Positions 1,729 to 29,655 of a stretch of 35,169 nucleotides of DNA are shown here, piece after piece; positions within the stretch are counted from its first letter, which is position 1, and each line of letters opens with the position of its first letter. Origin of the DNA: Nanobdellota archaeon (GTDB taxonomy: Archaea > Nanobdellota > Nanobdellia > Woesearchaeales > GW2011-AR9); assembly GCA_030695685.1 (NCBI GenBank), contig JAUYPT010000078.1:1-35169 (forward strand), written 5' to 3'. A program made the position numbers and the translations under genes. The notes below the pieces were generated by a model. It ran no database searches. It was not told the origin of the DNA and saw only the letters and a program-made list of their open reading frames with translations.

Positions 1729-2183
1729 GGGAGATTACCTTTTCCTTGTTTTTTATGGTCCTTAGCTGGTGTAGCAGCCATGGTTTTCTTTTTTGATTCC
1801 AGTTTTTGTTTTCGTAGTTTATCACTTACATCCAACTCTATAATCATTAATTTTGACGGCAGTAAAGGAAACGGCACTTTGGAACCGTCTTTTTTTATAG
1901 TTTCTATCCCATTGACAAAAATGGAATTCCGTTTTAGGAGAACTCGTTCCACTTTTCCTTCTTTCTTCTGATGGGATCCTCGAAGAACCGTAACCTTATC
2001 TCCCTTCCGTACTTGGATATTTCGAAAGCCATATTTCTGCCGTAGTGCCGGCGACAAATGAACATGAACTCTTTTCTGCCGGAGATGGAGTGGAGCATTA
2101 TACCTATACTTACGCTGTTTACGCACTTGTGTACTGCTTTTCCATGCTCTGGAAAAAGTTTTGGGAATTGATTTTAGTATCAT
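1725..2183 (-). CDS. rpl24: 50S ribosomal protein uL24, with Lys-rich C-terminal tail
   Basis: KQRKYRYNAPLHLRQK...VRKGDKVTVLRGSHQKKEGKV is a KOW motif. It overlaps eS4 by 4 nt. Confidence 0.92.
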   Translation of the reverse strand: MILKSIPKTFSRAWKSSTQVRKQRKYRYNAPLHLRQKRVHVHLSPALRQKYGFRNIQVRKGDKVTVLRGSHQKKEGKVERVLLKRNSIFVNGIETIKKDGSKVPFPLLPSKLMIIELDVSDKLRKQKLESKKKTMAATPAKDHKKQGKGNLP

Positions 2184-2199
2184 TTTTATGTATCTACCA

Positions 2200-2601
2200 T
2201 TAAATTATCATTGATGCTAATTTAGCTACTGCCGGCCAACGCTCGGCTACTTCTTTGGCAATTGGACCTTTCAGGAGCGTGCCTTTTGGATTTCCTTTTT
2301 CATCCTTTAAAACAACGGCAGCATTATCCTCAAATTTGATTCTCATGCCATCCGGACGCCTGTATTCTTTTTTCTGGCGGACAATGATGGCAGGAACGAC
2401 TGTTTTTCTCATCTCTAACTTTCCTTTTTTGACGCTCGCTAAAACCAAATCGCCAACACCAGCAGTAGGAATTCTACCGCGGGAAGTTTTGCTTCCTTTA
2501 ACAGCTACTATTTTTAAGATTTTAGCGCCGGAATTATCGCATGTCGCCACATACGCCTGTGAGGGCAATGATTTTATAACGTTACTTTTGAGCGCTTTCA
2601 T
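2200..2601 (-). CDS. rpl14: 50S ribosomal protein uL14
   Basis: 133 aa; ATCDNSGAK...GDLVLASVKKG...IVRQKKEYRRPDG..IKFEDNA is typical of uL14. Confidence 0.95.
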   Translation of the reverse strand: MKALKSNVIKSLPSQAYVATCDNSGAKILKIVAVKGSKTSRGRIPTAGVGDLVLASVKKGKLEMRKTVVPAIIVRQKKEYRRPDGMRIKFEDNAAVVLKDEKGNPKGTLLKGPIAKEVAERWPAVAKLASMII

Positions 2602-3002
2602 CGTACTTTTCCTTCCTCTTTAGCGGCTACCTTCGCCGTTTCTTTCTTTTTGGCTGATTTAGATACTGCTGATTTTTCATCACTGCCAACAACAGCAAGT
2701 ATAACATGATTTTTTGTTTTACTTAATGGACGTGTTCTCGCTGCTAAGACATTATCTCCAATCTCTGCTTCTACACAGGCAGGATTATGGACGTGCATCC
2801 GCGATCTTCTGAGCTCGTATCGTTCATACTTAGGAATATAATAAGGTCTAAACCATTCAATTGTTGCAGAGCGGTTACTATCTTTTTTGATAATCTTTCC
2901 TCTAAACAACTCTTTTTTAACAGAGAGCTGTCCGTGGAAAGGACATTTTTTGTCCGTACAGTCTTTTGTTGGTGCATGCACACCAAATAGTTCTTTATTC
3001 AT
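2598..3002 (-). CDS. rps17: 30S ribosomal protein uS17, with Lys-rich C-terminal tail
   Basis: CTDKKCPFHGQLSVK...RSATIEWFRPYYIPKYERYELRRSRMHVHNP matches archaeal uS17. It overlaps uL14 by 4 nt. Confidence 0.93.
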   Translation of the reverse strand: MNKELFGVHAPTKDCTDKKCPFHGQLSVKKELFRGKIIKKDSNRSATIEWFRPYYIPKYERYELRRSRMHVHNPACVEAEIGDNVLAARTRPLSKTKNHVILAVVGSDEKSAVSKSAKKKETAKVAAKEEGKVR

Positions 3003-3004
3003 TG

Positions 3005-3265
3005 TTATTTTCCTTTAATTCTATCTTCGGAACGCCTGGCAATGGTTTTTCCCTCAACAACCATGCCTGTCCTGGTGATCTTTAACGTCACATTTTGTTT
3101 CAGGATCATTTTATGATTCCCATGATCATCAATGGTCAATGTGTTTTTCGTTTCATCAACAATTTTTCCGGTGAGACCAATCTCACTTTTGTTGGTGGAA
3201 TGTACAATGGAAACTTCTTCCCCGATTAACTCATCAGGAAAACTTGCCATTGAAACCATTTTCAT
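3005..3265 (-). CDS. rnp1: RNase P protein component 1 (Rpp29/Pop4 homologue)
   Basis: 86 aa; LIGEEVSIVHSTNKSEIGLTGKIVDETKNTLTI is the Rpp29 Sm-like core. It occupies the canonical archaeal slot between SUI1 and uS17. Confidence 0.85.
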   Translation of the reverse strand: MKMVSMASFPDELIGEEVSIVHSTNKSEIGLTGKIVDETKNTLTIDDHGNHKMILKQNVTLKITRTGMVVEGKTIARRSEDRIKGK

Positions 3266-3296
3266 TACTCCAGCAAAATCATGCGGTCTTGCTGAT

Positions 3297-3602
3297 TTAG
3301 ACTACCTCAATAGTCTCTTCCGGGAAACCCAAATCGACAAGGACACCTTTTATCCTTGATTTATGGTCCCCCTGCAACTCAATTTGACCATTTTTAGCCG
3401 TACCGCCGCAGGCAAATTTCGATTTTAATTTTCGAACAATTTCATCGATGTTTGCTTCTTTATTGATACCGACTATGATTGTATATTTTTTGCCAAACTT
3501 TCTTTTTTCAATTTTAGCGGTGATTTTTTGCTGTTCGCGAGCAATTGTTTCGCAAACACACAAATCTTGAGGTAATCCACACTGGTTACAAACGTTAACC
3601 AT
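3297..3602 (-). CDS. sui1: Translation initiation factor SUI1 (aIF1/eIF1 family)
   Basis: N-terminal CxxC..CxC, then KRKFGKKYTIIVGI...KLKSKFACGGTAKNGQIELQGDH, typical of SUI1. It occupies the canonical slot after uL29. Confidence 0.9.
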   Translation of the reverse strand: MVNVCNQCGLPQDLCVCETIAREQQKITAKIEKRKFGKKYTIIVGINKEANIDEIVRKLKSKFACGGTAKNGQIELQGDHKSRIKGVLVDLGFPEETIEVV

Positions 3603-3607
3603 TCTTC

Positions 3608-3811
3608 TTACATCAACACCTCTTTTTTCTCTTGAAGCAGTGTTAAAACCCGGGCTATATTCTTTTTTGTCTGCTTTAATTTTCCCGAATTGGCAGTATT
3701 AGCACCGCTGGCTACTTGCACATTTAATTTAAGTAGTTCCTTTTTAAATTCTCCCAATCTTTCCTGCAGAACTTCCTGTGATAAGGATCGAAAATTTTTG
3801 ATAGTTTTCAT
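3608..3811 (-). CDS. rpl29: 50S ribosomal protein uL29
   Basis: 67 aa; LRSLSQEVLQERLGEFKKELLKLNVQ matches the uL29 helical hairpin. Confidence 0.92.
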   Translation of the reverse strand: MKTIKNFRSLSQEVLQERLGEFKKELLKLNVQVASGANTANSGKLKQTKKNIARVLTLLQEKKEVLM

Positions 3812-3813
3812 GG

Positions 3814-4665
3814 TTACTCTTTATCCTCACTGTTTTGATCAGCTTTGTTGGCATCACTTGTAATGGCATCGCCTATAGCATCGACAACCGAGATGATTTC
3901 TTCCGCAACAGCTTCGTTCTTGGGGGAAGTAATTTCTTGTGAACCACTTTCTCCTGTTTTTTCCTTGTCGCTTTTAACCATTTTTTTCCGGGATGCTGAT
4001 TTTTTCTTTGCCGTTGTTTTTTTAGCCGGTTCTTCTTTTTCAGATATGACTTCTACTGTTTGAACAGGCTCATCAAGTACTTCAATAAGATCAGGCAATT
4101 GTAAATGAGGTGGCATAATAGATACTTTTACCCCAATAATTCCACTTTTTAAAAGTGCACTTTTTTGTGCTTTAAGAACGCCGGAAACAGCAATGTCTCC
4201 GCATTTCTTAAGATACCCTTGAAAGAAACGCCAGCTCTTTGCACGCGCACCAGGAATTTTTCCAGAGATAATTACCTCGATTCCCAAAGCACCGGCATTA
4301 AGAACATTCTCCATAATTTTATGGCCAATACTCTTAAACCGAACAGAACCGAACCTTTCCAGAGAACTGACAATGCGGTCAGCAACAAGATTGGCATCCA
4401 AAAAAATGTCTTTTACTTCATTAATTTCAATTTGAGGATTTTCTAATTTAAAGTCGGATTTTAACGTTCGGGTAAGCTCTTTAATATTAGCGCCTTTAGA
4501 CCCGACGATAAGGCTCGGCCGTCCTGCAGAAATGATTATTTTCTCTCCAAGAGGGATCTTCTTCAGCGTTACGTGGGAAATGCCAGCTCCTTTGAGTTTA
4601 TTTTCTATATATTTCTTAATGTAATACTCTTTCGTTTTCTGGACTATAAATTCCCGTTCAATCAT
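3814..4665 (-). CDS. rps3: 30S ribosomal protein uS3, with about 75-aa low-complexity K/E/S-rich C-terminal extension
   Basis: KH-domain region GRPSLIVGSKGANIKELT and the C-terminal domain GIEVIISGKIPGARAK match uS3. The tail is EKEEPAKKTTAKKKSASRKK... Confidence 0.94.
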   Translation of the reverse strand: MIEREFIVQKTKEYYIKKYIENKLKGAGISHVTLKKIPLGEKIIISAGRPSLIVGSKGANIKELTRTLKSDFKLENPQIEINEVKDIFLDANLVADRIVSSLERFGSVRFKSIGHKIMENVLNAGALGIEVIISGKIPGARAKSWRFFQGYLKKCGDIAVSGVLKAQKSALLKSGIIGVKVSIMPPHLQLPDLIEVLDEPVQTVEVISEKEEPAKKTTAKKKSASRKKMVKSDKEKTGESGSQEITSPKNEAVAEEIISVVDAIGDAITSDANKADQNSEDKE

Positions 4666-5183
4666 GATTGTGCCTCATTCTGTTTTTTATCCGCTGCCGG
4701 CAATGTTTTTTTTCTCGCCTTCTTTGAGGCCGTAGATTTTGCAGAATTTTGTTCCGTCAACGCTTCCATAACCATCACTTCTAAGTGTGTCCGTTTTGTT
4801 CCGTGCCGGATCCTGCCACCAGTTAATGGAATGCTCGCTTTATTGGCGAGAAGTTTTACGATCTTAAGATTGGTCGTATTCAACCCTTTGGCATGAGCGT
4901 TGGCTTCTACGGATTTAATTAAACGCAAAAATTCCCGAGCCGCTTTCTGAGGATAACGTCCTGCCGCCATACCTGCTTTATGGCCCATATCTTGAGTAAA
5001 CCTTGTGAATGGAACTGCTTTCCGCAGCAAGGCTACTTCACCTAAAAATTTCTTGGCAAAGGTCGTATTTTTATAGCGCAGATAACGGCTAATTTCAATG
5101 CTCTGCTTCGTTGAAATAGGAAGATTAGTCATTTTCGCAGATGCGCGATGTTCCGTTCCTATCGTATTTTTTGTCGTTGCCAT
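4662..5183 (-). CDS. rpl22: 50S ribosomal protein uL22
   Basis: ASAKMTNLPISTKQSIEISRYLRYK...GRYPQKAAREFLRLIKSVEANA is uL22. I prefer the start at MATTKN (5183) because the 5237 start would overlap the uS19 3' end by 44 nt. Confidence 0.9.
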   Translation of the reverse strand: MATTKNTIGTEHRASAKMTNLPISTKQSIEISRYLRYKNTTFAKKFLGEVALLRKAVPFTRFTQDMGHKAGMAAGRYPQKAAREFLRLIKSVEANAHAKGLNTTNLKIVKLLANKASIPLTGGRIRHGTKRTHLEVMVMEALTEQNSAKSTASKKARKKTLPAADKKQNEAQS

Positions 5184-5193
5184 TGTTCTAATT

Positions 5194-5577
5194 TTATCGT
5201 GCAGAGACTGCCCTGCTTGACCTCGTTGCGCCAACACCGGCAGAACTGTGCGTTACAAACTTGCGGGTATGGGAAAATTCACCTAAATAATGGCCAAGCA
5301 TTTCTGCTGTTACCGTAACAGGAACAAACTCCTTCCCATTATAGACACGAATTAACTTGCCCAGCATCAAAGGAATAATAATCATATCCCGGCAATGAGT
5401 TTTAACATTATTATCACCGGTTTCTAATCGTTTAATAAGACTCTTCTGGTATTCTGTAAAACCGCGTTGTAATGATCGCCGCTGACGAGCGGGCACTAAA
5501 GCAGTAAACTCGCGTAACCCCAGCTGCTTAAGGTCATCTTCTGTCTTTCCCCGCCACATAAATTGTTTTATTGCCAT
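5194..5577 (-). CDS. rps19: 30S ribosomal protein uS19
   Basis: RRSLQRGF...KTHCRDMIIIPLMLGKLIRVYNGKEFVPVTVTAEMLGHYLGEFSHTRK is typical of uS19. Confidence 0.95.
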   Translation of the reverse strand: MAIKQFMWRGKTEDDLKQLGLREFTALVPARQRRSLQRGFTEYQKSLIKRLETGDNNVKTHCRDMIIIPLMLGKLIRVYNGKEFVPVTVTAEMLGHYLGEFSHTRKFVTHSSAGVGATRSSRAVSAR

Positions 5578-5584
5578 TGTTTAC

Positions 5585-6289
5585 TTACCTTCTCCTTCCT
5601 GTCCTGCGTGGTGCAATCTTCCCTACTTTCCTTCCCGGAGGAGCATTACGCGGCGATTGTGTTGGTCTTCCTTTAATGTGGGAACATTTTCCACCAAAAG
5701 GATGGTCAACTGCGTTCATAGAGATACCACAGACGTGAGGATATAATTTATTACGAGCTCTCATTTTTTTATACTTTGTCCCTGCTTTAAGAAAGGGCTT
5801 GTCTAACCTGCCGCTTCCTGCAACGATGCCTAAGGATGCTTTACATGTTGGCAGGAAAATTTTTTCCTTTTTTGAGGGTAAAACGACGCGGACAATGTCT
5901 TCGCTTTTGGCTACAACTTTCGCAAAAGAACCAGAGGCACGTACTAGTTTACCGCCGTCACCAGGATGAATTTCAATATTATGGATTAAAGACCCTTCGG
6001 GAATTTCACTGAGCGGAAGAACGTTTCCATTTTTAATTTCAGCGCCTTTCCCAACCGTGATCAGATCGCCAACTTTTACCCCTTCCGGAGCAAACGTAAG
6101 ATTATGAGCACCTGTAAGATATGATACCTCCATTAACGGAGCTGTATGGCCGGCACAGTGGATTATATCGGTAATCTGGCCTTTTGTATCTAATGGATAA
6201 TGTTTTGCTTCTCCCTTAAAGCGGAAGCTAGGAGAAGTATAGGTTTTTGTTCCCCGTCCCCGCCGTTGTTGTATCAGTCGTTTACCCAT
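5585..6289 (-). CDS. rpl2: 50S ribosomal protein uL2
   Basis: GHTAPLM...IHNIEIHPGDGGKLVRASGSFA...GISMNAVDHPFGGK match uL2 signatures. Confidence 0.96.
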   Translation of the reverse strand: MGKRLIQQRRGRGTKTYTSPSFRFKGEAKHYPLDTKGQITDIIHCAGHTAPLMEVSYLTGAHNLTFAPEGVKVGDLITVGKGAEIKNGNVLPLSEIPEGSLIHNIEIHPGDGGKLVRASGSFAKVVAKSEDIVRVVLPSKKEKIFLPTCKASLGIVAGSGRLDKPFLKAGTKYKKMRARNKLYPHVCGISMNAVDHPFGGKCSHIKGRPTQSPRNAPPGRKVGKIAPRRTGRRR

Positions 6290-6650
6290 GGTATAAACCT
6301 GCTTGTTGGAGTAATTTTAATTCCGTTTTCAAGCACTCTCTTCTTTCTGGCGTATCTATTTCATAATATCCCTGGCCCTCATCTTCATCTAAGCCATCCA
6401 CAACTAAATCTCCTGTTTGATCAAAAGAAATATTTTCATTATGTATCACTTCTCTTACAATAGCAGTCATTCTATCATCGTGATCGATGCTCAGAAAAAT
6501 TCTCCTTTCTCCAACTCTACCTTCATAAACTGCAAGATAAGCACCATCATAGTATTCGGAACCATAGTCTAACTTCACCCTATCACCAGCCACAAGGCTA
6601 TCTAAGTCTACGTAGGTATATACTCGTTTTGTTGCTGGTATATTTGCCAT
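6282..6650 (-). CDS. Hypothetical acidic protein inserted between uL23 and uL2 (no family recognised)
   Basis: A 122-aa ORF fills the entire 362-nt uL23-uL2 gap on the operon strand. Its ATG lies 1 nt after the uL23 stop and its stop overlaps the uL2 start by 8 nt. The sequence resembles no ribosomal protein I know. Confidence 0.65.
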   Translation of the reverse strand: MANIPATKRVYTYVDLDSLVAGDRVKLDYGSEYYDGAYLAVYEGRVGERRIFLSIDHDDRMTAIVREVIHNENISFDQTGDLVVDGLDEDEGQGYYEIDTPERRECLKTELKLLQQAGLYHG

Positions 6651-6651
6651 C

Positions 6652-6990
6652 TTAAATCAATCCTAAATCAGCACTGACATCGGACGCCAAACTGTCCGGC
6701 CCTAATTGAACATAGGCTATCTTTCTGCCGCTGAAGGAATTTTGAATATTAACACCGGTTACTTTTACCTTAAAGAGTTCTTCCACTGCCCGCTTGACAT
6801 CAGATTTTGTTGACTGTGGATTGACAGAAAAGACGAGCTTGTTCTCAAACTCAATCTGCCGGATGCTTTTTTCCGTCGATAAAGGAAATTGAATCACGTT
6901 ATAAGGATCAAAAGATACTGCTGGTGTTACAACACTCTTTTCATCTCTCTTGTTGAGTGCATTTTTTGTGGTTTTTCTTTTGGCTGCCAT
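6652..6990 (-). CDS. rpl23: 50S ribosomal protein uL23 (Lys-rich N-terminal extension)
   Basis: IQFPLSTEKSIRQIEFENKLVFSVNPQSTKSDVKRAVEELFKVKVTGVN is the uL23 core. Confidence 0.93.
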   Translation of the reverse strand: MAAKRKTTKNALNKRDEKSVVTPAVSFDPYNVIQFPLSTEKSIRQIEFENKLVFSVNPQSTKSDVKRAVEELFKVKVTGVNIQNSFSGRKIAYVQLGPDSLASDVSADLGLI

Positions 6991-7796
6991 TAGACAAATA
7001 ATTTTTTCTCCTTGATGCTATTAATTGCGTTTTCTGTCCATAACGTCGCTCTTCCCGGCATTGTTCCAGGCGCTAACAGCGCCGTGTTCAATGACGATGC
7101 AGGAACAACATCAACGCCAGGGATATTACGGGCTGATTTTATTAATGGGCAATCTGCCCCAACAACAATCAGGACTCCTTTCTTCTTTTGATATTTTCTG
7201 CCACGTACTTTACCCATACCGGCACGAACTTTTTTAACAGAAGACCGCTGCAGTTCATCTTCAAATCCTAATTCTATCAATACTTTTCGTGTCTCTGCAG
7301 TTTTATCCATTTTTTCGAATGCTGAATCAATGATAAAAGGATATTCTGCAGGAACTTTATGCCCTCTTTTTTCGACAATATTTTTATTGAGGACAGCACC
7401 GATAGCGGAACGAATTGCTTTTTGATTTTCTTTTTTGTTGATTTTTTGTGTCAGAATTTTTGTTGCTTTTGGAGGATGAGAACGATGCCCGCCGACAGTC
7501 TGCGGTGAAAACGCACCAACCCAGAACATGCGCATTCCCCGTCGTGATAAAACTTTTCGGTTAACTCTACTTACTCCAAAACCATAACAGCCGCGATAGT
7601 TCCGCCGCCGCTTGCTTACTTTAGAAGAATGACGCAGACCAGCACCGGGACTAGCTCCGTACCGCTGCCGTGCAGCACTCTGCAAGGCGTGGACTGCCCG
7701 CTTAATCAGGTCAGGGCGGAATTCTTCCGAAAATTGGACAGGAAGCTCTTTATCTCCCGCTTTTTTCTTTTTGAGGTCAAATATTGCAATCTTCAT
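6990..7796 (-). CDS. rpl4: 50S ribosomal protein uL4
   Basis: RPDLIKRAV...RQRYGASPGAGLRHS...FSPQTVGGHRSHPPK matches archaeal uL4 (L1e). Confidence 0.94.
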   Translation of the reverse strand: MKIAIFDLKKKKAGDKELPVQFSEEFRPDLIKRAVHALQSAARQRYGASPGAGLRHSSKVSKRRRNYRGCYGFGVSRVNRKVLSRRGMRMFWVGAFSPQTVGGHRSHPPKATKILTQKINKKENQKAIRSAIGAVLNKNIVEKRGHKVPAEYPFIIDSAFEKMDKTAETRKVLIELGFEDELQRSSVKKVRAGMGKVRGRKYQKKKGVLIVVGADCPLIKSARNIPGVDVVPASSLNTALLAPGTMPGRATLWTENAINSIKEKKLFV

Positions 7797-10253: not shown

Positions 10254-10910
10254 ATGATATCACACAAAATCTTTGAGATCTATGAAGAAGGAAGAAGCAT
10301 CTTTACGAAAAGTATTCTCCCAGGTAAAACGCATTTTGACGAAAGAATTGTCACGGAAAAAAGAGAAGAGTATCGGGAGATAGACCCTTCAAGAAGTAAA
10401 TTAGGAGCGATGATTCTCAAAGGCTGCACAAACATTGGCATTCGTAAAAATGATGTTGTGCTCTATCTAGGATCAAGCCACGGGTATACCCCATCGTTTG
10501 TGTCCGACATCATTGGCAAGGACGGCCTGCTTTTTGGCGTTGATCCCGCACCACGGGTGATGAGAGACTTTGTATTTTTATGTGAAGAACGGCGCAATAT
10601 GGTCCCTCTTTTAGCTGATGCTCATCATCCTGAAGAATATCTTCCCCGAATATGCCTTGCTGATATTGTCTATCAGGACATCGCCCAGAAAAATCAGGCT
10701 GAAATCTTTATCAATAATTGCCGCTTATTTCTGAAAAAAGGGGGATATGGGCTGTTTGCAGTAAAAGCGAGAAGCATCGATATTCGAAGGAAGCCGAAAG
10801 ACATTTTCATTGAGATTCGAAATGCATTGGAAAAGGAATTTACTGTCATTGATTACCGCATTTTAGAGCCGTTCCAGAAAGATCATTGTATGATTATTGT
10901 GAAGAAATGA
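10254..10910 (+). CDS. flpA: Fibrillarin-like rRNA/tRNA 2'-O-methyltransferase
   Basis: REIDPSRSKLGAMIL...VLYLGSSHGYTPSFVSDI...VYQDIAQKNQAEI..N....LKKGGYGLFAVKARSID is the fibrillarin SAM-methyltransferase fold. The gene is coupled to nop5. Confidence 0.93.
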   Translation: MISHKIFEIYEEGRSIFTKSILPGKTHFDERIVTEKREEYREIDPSRSKLGAMILKGCTNIGIRKNDVVLYLGSSHGYTPSFVSDIIGKDGLLFGVDPAPRVMRDFVFLCEERRNMVPLLADAHHPEEYLPRICLADIVYQDIAQKNQAEIFINNCRLFLKKGGYGLFAVKARSIDIRRKPKDIFIEIRNALEKEFTVIDYRILEPFQKDHCMIIVKK

Positions 10911-10911
10911 A

Positions 10912-11913
10912 TTAACGTTCACGAAGATAACTAAATTCATATCTCTTTTCACACATATTTATCAAAGCTTGTGCATCAGAAATAATTGAGGGTAATTGAT
11001 TTTTGTAATAATCAGTTAATACATTAGCTTTGAAATCAACATAATAATGAATATTTTTATTGTAAATAGTTATAGTATTTTCTGGAGTACAAAAGATTGT
11101 TGCACTTTGAAGATAATTTAAACCTGTAACTAAAGTTAAATCCTCAGCAGGTTTTTCCCAATAATTTTCAGTAGTCCTATTAACGATGATATTATAGTGA
11201 TCTAAAGATATTAAATGTCTTAATACTATTTTTTGACTAACACTTTCTAAAAGTATAGTTTCATCCACAATTACTTCTTGATTATTTAAAGAATGACTAA
11301 TGTAAGAAAGTTCATTATCATTATAATTTTTTTGAATTAGTTTAAGAGCATCACCTTTTTGAAAACTTTCAATAAATTCTTGTCTGTTTCTTTCAATATG
11401 TTCACTAAAATAATGTTCATTATTTTTAACATAAGCGAGAAGTTCTTCCCCTGGTTTAATAGGATTCTCACTCATTAATGATACTGTAACAAGCCTATAA
11501 GGTAATACTTTATTCACTTTTTTGTCATATGATGATGTAATACCTAAAGTATTAGTTCGCAATGGCTGATAAGCAAAAAAACTAATGTCTGCAAATTCTT
11601 TATCTTTCTGTAAAACTAAGAATTCATCAGGGTTAAAAATCAAGACATTTCCTATGTCTGCTTGCAAATCAGAAAGGGTATAAGAACTTGCTTTAACATT
11701 TGAACCATTATCAGATTCTAATAAATTACCTGTTTCATCACGATCACAAATAGAATTATCATTTTTATCTAAGCAACATTCAGTTCCTACAAGAATATAA
11801 GGCTTATTGCAGACAACCTGATTAGTGTTAGTAGTGCTTTGGGTACAGCCAGTTATAATAACTAAGAAAGTCACTAACAAAAAACATAATAGTATATTTC
11901 TTAACAAAGACAT
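10912..11913 (-). CDS. Hypothetical secreted lipoprotein (signal peptide plus lipobox-like ITGC, Cys-rich N-terminal segment)
   Basis: 333-aa ORF with hydrophobic N-terminus LLCFLLVTFLVIITGCTQ. It is visibly more AT-rich than its neighbours. A TATA-like TTTATTTAAAT lies about 20-30 nt upstream. Confidence 0.6.
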   Translation of the reverse strand: MSLLRNILLCFLLVTFLVIITGCTQSTTNTNQVVCNKPYILVGTECCLDKNDNSICDRDETGNLLESDNGSNVKASSYTLSDLQADIGNVLIFNPDEFLVLQKDKEFADISFFAYQPLRTNTLGITSSYDKKVNKVLPYRLVTVSLMSENPIKPGEELLAYVKNNEHYFSEHIERNRQEFIESFQKGDALKLIQKNYNDNELSYISHSLNNQEVIVDETILLESVSQKIVLRHLISLDHYNIIVNRTTENYWEKPAEDLTLVTGLNYLQSATIFCTPENTITIYNKNIHYYVDFKANVLTDYYKNQLPSIISDAQALINMCEKRYEFSYLRER

Positions 11914-11977
11914 TTGCAGAAAAAAATGATGGGTTTATTTAAATGTTTTCAAAAAGTTAACCGATAAAGAGCACAAT

Positions 11978-12217
11978 TCATTCTTCTTCCTTCTTCACAT
12001 GAATAATATTAACCGGACAAACGTCAGCTGCTTCCTGATTAATTCTCCGCGTCTCTTCATCAGTTACAAGTAACTCTTGATGATCTTCTTTTTCTTCGGA
12101 ACCTTTCAATTCGGCTAACCCCTGTTCGTCCATCTCCCAGAACTCCGGGCTAATCGCAACGCAGGCGCCGCAGCTGATGCATTTTTTCTTAAAATGAATT
12201 ATGGTATGAATTGTCAT
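11978..12217 (-). CDS. Small ferredoxin (single [Fe-S] cluster type)
   Basis: CISCGACVAISPEFW...CPVNIIHV. I prefer the start at 12217 (MTIHTI..), which lies 22 nt from TATA-like TTATAAAA (12239-12246, minus strand). The longer ORF start at 12235 is possible. Confidence 0.8.
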   Translation of the reverse strand: MTIHTIIHFKKKCISCGACVAISPEFWEMDEQGLAELKGSEEKEDHQELLVTDEETRRINQEAADVCPVNIIHVKKEEE

Positions 12218-28402: not shown

Positions 28403-28425
28403 CGTTGAGCTTGATTGATGAATGG

Positions 28426-28433
28426 TATATAAA
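28426..28433 (-). promoter_or_regulatory. TATA-like box for secF-secD
   Basis: TTTATATA read on the minus strand, ending 24 nt before the ATG at 28402. Confidence 0.45.
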
Positions 28434-28463
28434 GATTATGATGGTAATTTGCTGGTTCGAAAC

Positions 28464-28489
28464 TTTGCACAAAAAGCCTTTTTTGCAAA
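28464..28489. promoter_or_regulatory. Imperfect palindrome TTTGCACAAAAAG-CC-TTTTTTGCAAA in the divergent secF / GHKL-gene intergenic region (candidate operator)
   Basis: The two half-sites TTTGCA...TGCAAA are read directly and lie between the two TATA-like boxes. Confidence 0.35.
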
Positions 28490-28524
28490 TTTACACAATT
28501 ATAGATTCTCTAGTTAATATATCA

Positions 28525-28532
28525 TTATAAAA
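28525..28532 (+). promoter_or_regulatory. TATA-like box for the GHKL/STAS cassette
   Basis: TTATAAAA ends 22 nt before the GTG at 28554. Confidence 0.45.
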
Positions 28533-28553
28533 GAGTTTTAAGAAAATAATTTT

Positions 28554-29366
28554 GTGAAAATTGTTATACCAGACTCCGATGATCCATTTGAACAGGCAGT
28601 CGATTGTTTTAAAGCCATTCAAAGTTTGGATCAAAATGATAAAATTGATTTAAGTAAAGTCTTATGGATTAGTCCTTTTGTTGCTTTAATGTTAAGTCAT
28701 AAAATTGAGGAATTACGTTTAAAAGGACATTCTTTAGATATAATAAAACCAGAATCTGTTAAAGTGCAAAATTATTTACAAAAGATTGGATTTCCTTTAG
28801 GTAGCGATTATATAAAAGGAAATACTGCTTTTCCGATAAAGCATTTTAACTCGAATCCAGAAAAAGCCATTGTAGATCTTTATAAATATATAGAATCGAC
28901 ATTCCCGGTGGAACTGAGGGGAAATACTATAAATTATATTCTTAGTGAATTAGTTGATAATGTGGATCAACATTCGAAGTATTCAACTGCTACAGTATTA
29001 GCACAATACTATCCTTTAAAAAAGTATATTGATATTGGAGTAGTAGACAATGGTTACTCCATCCCAGGAGTATTTACAGATAACGGAATCGACTTTGTGG
29101 AAGACCATAATGCGATTAAGTTAGCACTAGAGGGTGTTTCTACCAAAAATGAAGAGGGTAGAGGTAAAGGGTTACAATCGACGAGTAAATTAACAACCAA
29201 AGAATTAAAAGGTACACTTTATGCTTTTTCTAGAAACGGAGCAATGGTATTAACAGAAAATGTTAGAGAAGCATATAAACTTCAAGACACTCAATTGAAA
29301 GGAACACTGATATATTTAAGATTTGCCGTGCCTAAAACTAGCGTTAACCTTACTCCCTATTACTAA
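28554..29366 (+). CDS. GHKL-superfamily ATPase / SpoIIAB-RsbW-like putative Ser kinase with N-terminal STAS-like module
   Basis: N-box ELVDNVDQH (aa 132-140), G1-like VVDNGYSIPG and G2 GRGKGL. The N-terminal segment is KIDLSKVLWISPFVALMLSHKIEEL...YLQKIGF. GTG start. Confidence 0.7.
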   Translation: MKIVIPDSDDPFEQAVDCFKAIQSLDQNDKIDLSKVLWISPFVALMLSHKIEELRLKGHSLDIIKPESVKVQNYLQKIGFPLGSDYIKGNTAFPIKHFNSNPEKAIVDLYKYIESTFPVELRGNTINYILSELVDNVDQHSKYSTATVLAQYYPLKKYIDIGVVDNGYSIPGVFTDNGIDFVEDHNAIKLALEGVSTKNEEGRGKGLQSTSKLTTKELKGTLYAFSRNGAMVLTENVREAYKLQDTQLKGTLIYLRFAVPKTSVNLTPYY

Positions 29367-29367
29367 A

Positions 29368-29655
29368 ATGAAAACTATTTGTGTTTTAGAGCAACTGGAC
29401 GAATATCTTTCAACAAGAAATAGTATTAAAAGTTTTTTCATTTATATAGAAAATCTCCCTGAAACAGAAATATGCTTAGATTTTACAAATATTAAATTCA
29501 TTTCACGCTCTTCTGCTGATGAGTATTTAAAGCAAAAAAAAGCATCATTAAAGATCATTTATGAAAAGAATATGCCTAATGAGATAAAACACATTTTAAT
29601 ATCTGTTTCAGGGAATTCTGAGAATTTTCGTCAAACAAATGTAATTCCTTGCTAA
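29368..29655 (+). CDS. STAS-like small protein (DUF4325-type)
   Basis: 95 aa from an ATG 1 nt after the upstream stop. ICLDFTNIKFISRSSADEYL matches the DUF4325 hallmark (lDF.gV..issSFadE). The longer ORF start (29323) overlaps the upstream gene. Confidence 0.65.
   Translation: MKTICVLEQLDEYLSTRNSIKSFFIYIENLPETEICLDFTNIKFISRSSADEYLKQKKASLKIIYEKNMPNEIKHILISVSGNSENFRQTNVIPC

Follow-up and report, generated by a model that had tools for sequence, protein, structure and literature searches.

We analysed a two-gene cassette in a 35,169-nt stretch of DNA from a Nanobdellota archaeon (Woesearchaeales; GenBank assembly GCA_030695685.1, contig JAUYPT010000078.1, positions 1 to 35,169 of the forward strand), hereafter called the window. 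The cassette consists of open reading frame (ORF) A, in which a STAS-like domain precedes, in one polypeptide, a SpoIIAB-type GHKL domain that keeps every catalytic motif, and ORF B, a small STAS-fold protein whose helix α2 opens with an invariant serine. In every locus examined the two genes lie side by side, usually with translational coupling, and they co-evolve; the pair travels among archaea, bacteria, plasmids and temperate viruses. Because the STAS–GHKL architecture, the kinase-then-STAS gene order and the key residues are all kept, the pair belongs to the CapK/VapK–CapS/VapS superfamily. The initial annotation had presented it as an uncharacterised partner-switching unit; its closest relatives are CapK/CapS and VapK/VapS, reported in 2026, and not SpoIIAB/SpoIIAA. 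Since 2026, then, this kind of system counts as characterised. New here are a two-gene variant without an effector, the large size of this group, and its occurrence across archaea and archaeal viruses.

Structure prediction identified ORF A as a GHKL protein. Its AlphaFold 2 model (predicted local distance difference test (pLDDT) 95.4, predicted template modelling (pTM) score 0.92) was searched against the PDB with Foldseek, and the best matches by target TM-score were SpoIIAB chains 1l0o_A and 1til_E (TM 0.69–0.71, root-mean-square deviation 3.8–3.9, probability 1.0), bearing out the serine-kinase type first assigned to it. The motifs ELVDNVDQH (residues 132–140), VVDNGYSIPG (163–172) and GRGKGL (202–207) contain the N-box (E132/N136/H140), G1 (D165-x-G167) and G2 (R203-G204-x-G206) elements, and the lid is formed by S196-T197-K198. 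The N-box ExxxNxxxH, the [ST]TK lid and G2 are motifs that we take to be common to SpoIIAB and A. Against Pfam HATPase_c (PF02518), ORF A scored 23.1 bits (E 1e-4), under the gathering cut-off of 26.4, and HATPase_c matches 46 of 64 aligned members of the A family (E ≤ 0.01). NCBIfam returned no family-level match for A, with weak histidine-kinase matches only.

Over its N-terminal ~100 residues, A shows the same α-β-α-β-α succession as B, similarly spaced, with helices at residues 11–25, 41–56 and 69–77 and strands at 30–32 and 62–64 in the model. Profile comparison with hhalign placed the B profile on A residues 15–78 (E 2.8e-4); in addition, one B homologue matches the N-terminal part of the A profile and one A homologue matches DUF4325 weakly. 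Together with the published description of VapK and CapK as STAS–GHKL proteins (PMC13373217), these matches uphold the STAS-type module proposed at the outset for the first ~90 residues. We found no helix–turn–helix (HTH) Pfam match in A, which opens directly with the STAS-like domain and whose N-terminus aligned to that of VapK.

Two characterised systems provide the framework for interpreting this architecture. CapK, an HTH–STAS–GHKL protein, is switched on by single-stranded DNA (ssDNA) bound between the STAS and GHKL domains, for which W68 is essential (Chambers et al., EMBO J 2026, PMC13373217). It phosphorylates CapS, a STAS–winged HTH (wHTH) protein, at S54 on STAS helix α2, whereupon the CapS repressor dimer dissociates and CBASS, Bub and Thoeris operons are de-repressed (PMC13373217). 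VapKSC, which shields E. coli against a phage and which the same study reported from bacteria only, comprises VapK (STAS–GHKL, no HTH), the antitoxin VapS (STAS plus a C-terminal helix) and the PIN toxin VapC; the aromatic residue required for ssDNA activation is F54 in VapK, as it is W68 in CapK (PMC13373217).

Comparison with the CapK, VapK, CapS and VapS sequences from Appendix Table S2 of PMC13373217 revealed that A is homologous to VapK over its whole length. In hhalign, the A profile and Escherichia VapK align over 246 columns spanning A residues 12–259 (probability 97.6%, E 3e-12). In hmmsearch, the A-family profile matched VapK with 44.4 bits across hidden Markov model (HMM) positions 15–269 (E 6e-10 at a nominal database size of 1e6) and CapK with 36.5 bits, and did not match SpoIIAB. 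At the level of the alignment, W38 of A falls opposite the Phe in 'CRFLRP' of VapK, which is F54 in the paper and F49 when counted from the machine-read PDF, a few residues possibly having been lost in conversion. N136 of A is the counterpart of N218, the catalytic Asn of CapK.

The A family is large and its catalytic residues are almost perfectly kept. An exhaustive HMMER search of representative clusters at 50% identity, seeded with a three-sequence profile, returned 2,999 clusters at E ≤ 1e-3, of which 917 reached E ≤ 1e-10; almost all are 250–300 aa long and matched end to end. This result overturned the impression of a rare family left by a word-indexed search with a single sequence, which had yielded 2–3 homologues. 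Across the alignment of 64 members, N136, H140, G167, G204, G206 and G250 are invariant, and E132, D165 and R203 are each kept in 63; position 38 is W, F or Y in 60, and K156 is kept in 47. Within PHROG, A falls in phrog_3364 (E 1.4e-39), annotated 'unknown function'. PDB sequence searches with small profiles returned nothing meaningful.

A separate observation concerns DrmA, whose PADLOC model PDLC02567 (1750 positions) is matched at about 60–270 by 33 of the 64 A-family members (best E 6.8e-13). Since these matches lie in the N-terminal part of the model, some long DrmA helicases carry a GHKL module of the A family at their N-terminus. We rejected A as a DISARM component, the similarity being confined to the N-terminal GHKL region of so long a model.

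ORF B, which contains ICLDFTNIKFISRSSADEYL, was modelled by AlphaFold 2 (pLDDT 85) as a STAS core over residues 1–81, including a helix at 47–59, followed by a disordered tail. Foldseek matched it to the STAS domains of SLC26, TM1442, RsbS, SpoIIAA and RsbV (probability 0.9–1.0, TM 0.54–0.65). The protein from the window has no Pfam match and no reportable score to DUF4325 (PF14213; gathering cut-off 23 bits) at E ≤ 10. Two relatives do pass that cut-off, namely ORFC of the prophage psiM100 (29.4 bits) and a Marsarchaeota protein from locus L015 (27.2 bits), and both match the B profile (E 1e-21 and 5e-25, respectively). This transitive homology supports B as a probable divergent member of the DUF4325 type. 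Of the initial assignment to STAS-like DUF4325 proteins, then, the STAS fold stood, and the DUF4325 label is carried by relatives in place of a direct match. The profile searches first suggested for both proteins had a similarly mixed outcome, with A below the HATPase_c cut-off and B without a Pfam match, and the folds were rescued by structure prediction and by relatives.

Conservation in the B family centres on the start of helix α2. An indexed search found at least 267 members, mostly from Pace-, Nano- and Woesearchaeota, with the invariant motifs T16-R17 and F44-I-S46-R47-S48-C-A-D51-E52-Y53. The S46-R47-S48 triplet is kept in 40 of 40 members, and S48 (codon 29509–29511) sits at the N-terminus of helix α2. 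A [ST]-x-S motif is retained from DPANN relatives to homologues in Streptococcus and the Marinitoga phage. The B profile matched VapS over its N-terminal 43 residues (hhalign probability 69%, E 4.3e-5), and in a joint alignment S48 of B stands opposite the CapS phosphosite S54 in a common 'S-[FC]' context. B falls in phrog_20761 (E 2.7e-7), likewise annotated 'unknown function'. Elsewhere, the PIN.4 group of a published PIN classification (PMC5499597) is probably VapKSC, which ties DUF4325 to VapS.

Each of the 24 independent loci has homologues of A and B side by side, confirming the linkage that had been anticipated for the pair. A precedes B in 23 of these, and the genes are convergent in L016. 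The distance from the A stop to the B start is mostly +1 or −4 nt, as in the window, where it is 1 nt, and lies between −17 and +60 nt in 17 of 18 tabulated loci; L013 (−77) and L015 (+152) are off this range because the first-ATG rule mis-placed the start of B. Pairwise identities of A and of B across 18 loci are correlated (Spearman 0.58), a value reached in 0 of 2000 Mantel permutations. Within ±5 kb of the pair we found no conserved third gene across 15 loci, and phmmer returned no VapC match in these same neighbourhoods; the next gene in the window encodes an ABC ATPase.

The loci that carry the pair span several archaeal phyla, bacteria, a plasmid and temperate viruses (Table 1). The description of the cassette as bacterial-style machinery in an archaeon therefore understates its spread, which takes in several archaeal phyla and archaeal viruses (for example, MTH315/316 and psiM100). 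In psiM100, positions 4364–7156 form a 2.8-kb 'inserted fragment IFa' that consists of the kinase–STAS pair (ORFB/ORFC) and most of ORFD; this fragment sets the prophage psiM100 apart from psiM2 and adjoins three 125-bp tandem repeats. On the Halobaculum megaplasmid, the B-like ORF comes after the kinase homologue and is missing from the plasmid's gene table. A locus search with a narrow alignment returned archaeal genomes only, which reflects a bias of the search patterns, and found nothing in IMG/VR. Two pair loci in other archaea are rich in toxin–antitoxin (TA) genes (L001 at 2084–3860; L023 at 266–1095 and 4488–5224), which encode ParE, NTP_transf_2/MNT, DUF3368–UPF0175 and PIN–MazE proteins. 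Overall, outside the viruses and the plasmid, pair loci have an integrase gene together with Fic, ParE, MNT, VapC–MazE or PLD genes in the vicinity.

Table 1. Coordinates of the cassette in the window and settings of related pairs. MAG, metagenome-assembled genome.
Feature	Position	Strand	Description
ORF A	28554–29366	+	270 aa, GTG start; VapK/CapK-like STAS–GHKL Ser kinase (predicted)
ORF B	29368–29655	+	95 aa, ATG start; stand-alone STAS-fold protein, probably DUF4325-type, VapS/CapS-like; predicted phospho-substrate
Intergenic region, divergent, secF (minus strand)/ORF A	28403–28553	.	GC 0.258
A N-terminal STAS-like domain	28554–28853	+	About residues 1–100, including W38 (codon 28665–28667)
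A GHKL (Bergerat-fold) kinase domain	28911–29339	+	About residues 120–262
L024, Halobaculum marinum megaplasmid NZ_CP119990.1	5847–6140	+	B-like ORF; FVSRSVADEL motif, E 3.7e-8 to B profile
L016, Methanomicrobia MAG	5642–6097	−	152-aa ORF; zinc-ribbon-like N-terminal segment and C-terminal B-like STAS region
L021, Methanothermobacter prophage psiM100 (NC_002628.3)			ORFB/ORFC, annotated similar to MTH315/MTH316
Bacteroides phage BF1-TP2			Pair annotated 'ATP-binding protein' and 'DUF4325 domain-containing protein'
Streptococcus agalactiae prophage			Pair between lysin gene and prophage end
Marinitoga phage MPV1			Pair adjoins integrase
Pair-bearing loci, DPANN			Window; Pacearchaeota, Woesearchaeota and Nanoarchaeota MAGs
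Pair-bearing loci, other archaea			Marsarchaeota MAG; Methanomicrobia MAG; two further archaeal contigs
Pair-bearing loci, further contigs			Bacterial 1.47-Mb contig; contig with integrase and Fic gene

Set beside VapK–VapS, the pair shows both clear likeness and clear difference. As in VapK, the kinase is a STAS–GHKL protein without an N-terminal HTH, with the two aligning end to end, and it keeps the catalytic Asn and, where ssDNA is proposed to bind, an aromatic residue. The next gene in each case encodes a protein of ~100–116 aa that has a STAS core and carries a conserved Ser/Thr at helix α2, and both pairs are mobile and frequently near other defence genes. Unlike VapKSC, neither the window nor the 15 related loci contain VapC/PIN or any other conserved third gene; B is shorter than VapS (95 aa), and its tail is dissimilar to the C-terminal inhibitory helix of VapS. 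Identity to VapK is low (44 bits to the A-family profile), which makes the A clade a sister clade, and the clade of the pair is abundant in archaea and archaeal viruses. CapK–CapS resembles the pair in that its GHKL kinase includes a STAS domain internally and a STAS-domain protein, in CapKS the substrate, is encoded directly downstream. In contrast to A and B, CapK has an extra N-terminal HTH and CapS is a DNA-binding repressor with a C-terminal wHTH, whereas B is too short for this and contains no DNA-binding domain; nor does any immune operon follow the pair in the window. The features that define CapKS and VapKSC, namely an HTH on the kinase, a wHTH on the STAS protein or a PIN gene, are all absent.

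CapKS and VapKSC join a kinase–substrate sensor to a repressor domain or a PIN toxin, whereas the present clade is the sensor–switch pair alone and is much larger, with frequent occurrence among DPANN and other archaea as well as on plasmids and in temperate viruses of archaea and bacteria. The clade offers a functional lead for orphans including MTH315/316 and psiM100 ORFB/ORFC and for the two PHROGs of 'unknown function', and would extend partner switching by Ser phosphorylation to organisms that lack sigma factors.

We consider it probable that A is a nucleic-acid-gated Ser kinase that phosphorylates B at S48 or S46 and so switches the interactions of B, and that the pair serves virus–host conflict, either in defence or in prophage-encoded exclusion. 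A would stay idle until a nucleic-acid danger signal, most likely ssDNA from infection or DNA damage, binds in the groove that separates the STAS-like domain from the GHKL domain, stacked on W38. With ATP, activated A would then phosphorylate S48 of B (or S46 nearby), and phosphorylation would alter the oligomeric state or partner binding of B. Since B has no DNA-binding domain and no toxin gene is linked to it, we propose that unphosphorylated B holds a partner encoded elsewhere, or A itself, and that phosphorylation would free this partner. The outcome may be growth arrest or the exclusion of an invading virus, amounting to defence or superinfection exclusion; the release of the partner and this outcome are the least certain steps. 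The predicted kinase–substrate relation of A and B is well supported by homology, and an ssDNA trigger is suggested by one conserved aromatic residue and the common architecture.

Several observations weigh against this proposal. Kinase activity, ssDNA trigger and phosphosite are all features that we infer. No gene besides A and B is conserved in the 15 loci, no PIN gene lies nearby, and no candidate effector emerged. B resembles VapS weakly, and over the N-terminal half only. S58 of SpoIIAA and S48 of VapS face R47 of B and not its S48, leaving the acceptor ambiguous by one residue. PADLOC gave no system-level match for the cassette, with a marginal PDC-M70B match for B (E 0.0037) and none for A. 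Finally, the neighbours of the pair in the window are housekeeping genes and not defence genes; the defence-island setting put forward for checking at the outset does not hold there.

A bolder version of the proposal, to which we give only tentative credence, is that the pair by itself makes up a whole, if minimal, system of immunity or exclusion in archaea and their viruses. In it, the phospho-switchable B would engage directly a conserved target, cellular or viral, that is not linked to the pair, with neither a dedicated toxin nor a DNA-binding domain. If true, this would be the first phospho-Ser partner-switching circuit in archaeal virus–host conflict, and CapKS and VapKSC would be elaborations of the pair as their ancestral 'core'.

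We regard it as unlikely that the pair is instead a two-gene TA or abortive-infection module, in which kinase A would be the effector, phosphorylating essential host or viral proteins once it is activated or once B is depleted, and B would be a pseudo-substrate or antitoxin that keeps A occupied. Such a module would account for the conservation of two genes only, with no third component, and for their translational coupling, mobility and frequent location among TA modules. We know of no GHKL kinase that serves as a TA toxin, and a large enzyme encoded first with a small protein second is atypical, though possible, for type II TA. The STAS protein of VapKSC is itself an antitoxin, but the characterised relatives use the STAS protein as a true substrate and have a separate PIN protein as the toxin (PMC13373217).

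Less probable still is classical partner switching of the SpoIIAB/RsbW kind, a physiological regulator in which A would bind and inhibit a transcription factor, unphosphorylated B would take the place of that factor, and phosphorylation by A would in turn shut B off, the target being TBP/TFB or a specific regulator in archaea and a sigma factor in bacteria. The structural evidence is in keeping with this scheme. In structure, the GHKL Ser-kinase fold of A comes nearest to SpoIIAB, and B is similar to SpoIIAA, RsbV and RsbS; the STAS substrates SpoIIAA and RsbV are phosphorylated at the start of helix α2. Some relatives are named 'anti-anti-sigma regulatory factor' or 'putative anti-sigma factor' in databases, and at one locus a TFIIB gene adjoins the pair. 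To our knowledge archaea have no sigma factors, so the output of the pair cannot be one. Neither a transcription-factor gene (including a sigma factor) nor a PP2C phosphatase gene is a conserved neighbour in the 15 loci. Unlike SpoIIAB and RsbW, A is about twice as long and has an added STAS-like sensor domain, and its sequence matches VapK and CapK with no match to SpoIIAB. Moreover, the patchy, mobile and virus-borne distribution of the pair is ill-suited to a housekeeping or core regulator such as SpoIIAB–SpoIIAA.

The weakest alternative, that the pair regulates the adjacent ABC-2 transporter or secDF genes, draws on the 49 nt that separate the end of B from the ABC ATPase gene on the same strand, and is very improbable: synteny largely refutes it, since the secF–ABC arrangement is kept in relatives without the cassette (0 of 53 carry it), these genes are not conserved neighbours at other pair loci, and B is without a DNA-binding domain.

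The cassette is a horizontally acquired insertion that lies outside the secDF and ABC operons, as its compositional deviation, its absence from relatives of the locus and the short spacer found there together indicate. With a G+C content (GC) of 0.322, A ranks third lowest of the 42 genes in the window, and B, with 0.267, ranks lowest, the mean over genes being 0.393 (sd 0.044); GC at third codon positions (GC3) is 0.22 in A and 0.21 in B, against a mean of 0.34. SecF and SecD genes on the minus strand flank the cassette on one side, and ABC ATPase and ABC-2 permease genes on the plus strand on the other. Our synteny sample comprised 53 metagenomic loci (L025–L077) encoding SecF at 41–70% identity, and neither A nor B occurs in any of them. 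In at least 8, secF and the ABC ATPase gene are divergent direct neighbours 98–166 nt apart; the corresponding distance in the window is 1,302 nt and is occupied by the cassette. On these points the initial annotation proved accurate: the coordinates, ORF lengths, 1-nt gap and all the quoted motifs are present, the flanking genes are as described, and both the AT-richness of the cassette relative to its surroundings and its horizontal acquisition were borne out. The GTG start of A also agrees with the N-termini of its homologues.

Upstream of the cassette, the sequence TTATAAAA occurs at 28525–28532, ~25 nt 5′ of the GTG of A, a spacing that would suit a leaderless archaeal transcript; its promoter role is putative. 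An imperfect palindrome with 14-nt arms that are 86% complementary lies at 28461–28474/28479–28492. Both elements had been pointed out initially and both exist, but we give them no evidential weight because shuffled versions of the upstream spacer fold just as well (z = 0.49) and DNA of 26% GC is expected to contain AT-rich motifs. The palindrome was rejected as an operator on the same count, being not above chance, and because B has no DNA-binding domain.

Other relatives carry different genes at the secF/ABC spacer, either pyrG (CTP synthase), in several, or small lineage-specific ORFs; those in L037, L057 and L066 encode 90–210 aa and are low in GC. This spacer may be a recurrent insertion spot. 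Elsewhere in the window, a 333-aa ORF at 10912–11913 on the minus strand has no Pfam match. With a GC of 0.273 and a GC3 of 0.147, the lowest GC3 in the window, it is as AT-rich as the cassette; situated in a patch of low GC at ~10800–12000, it is a further gene of foreign composition.

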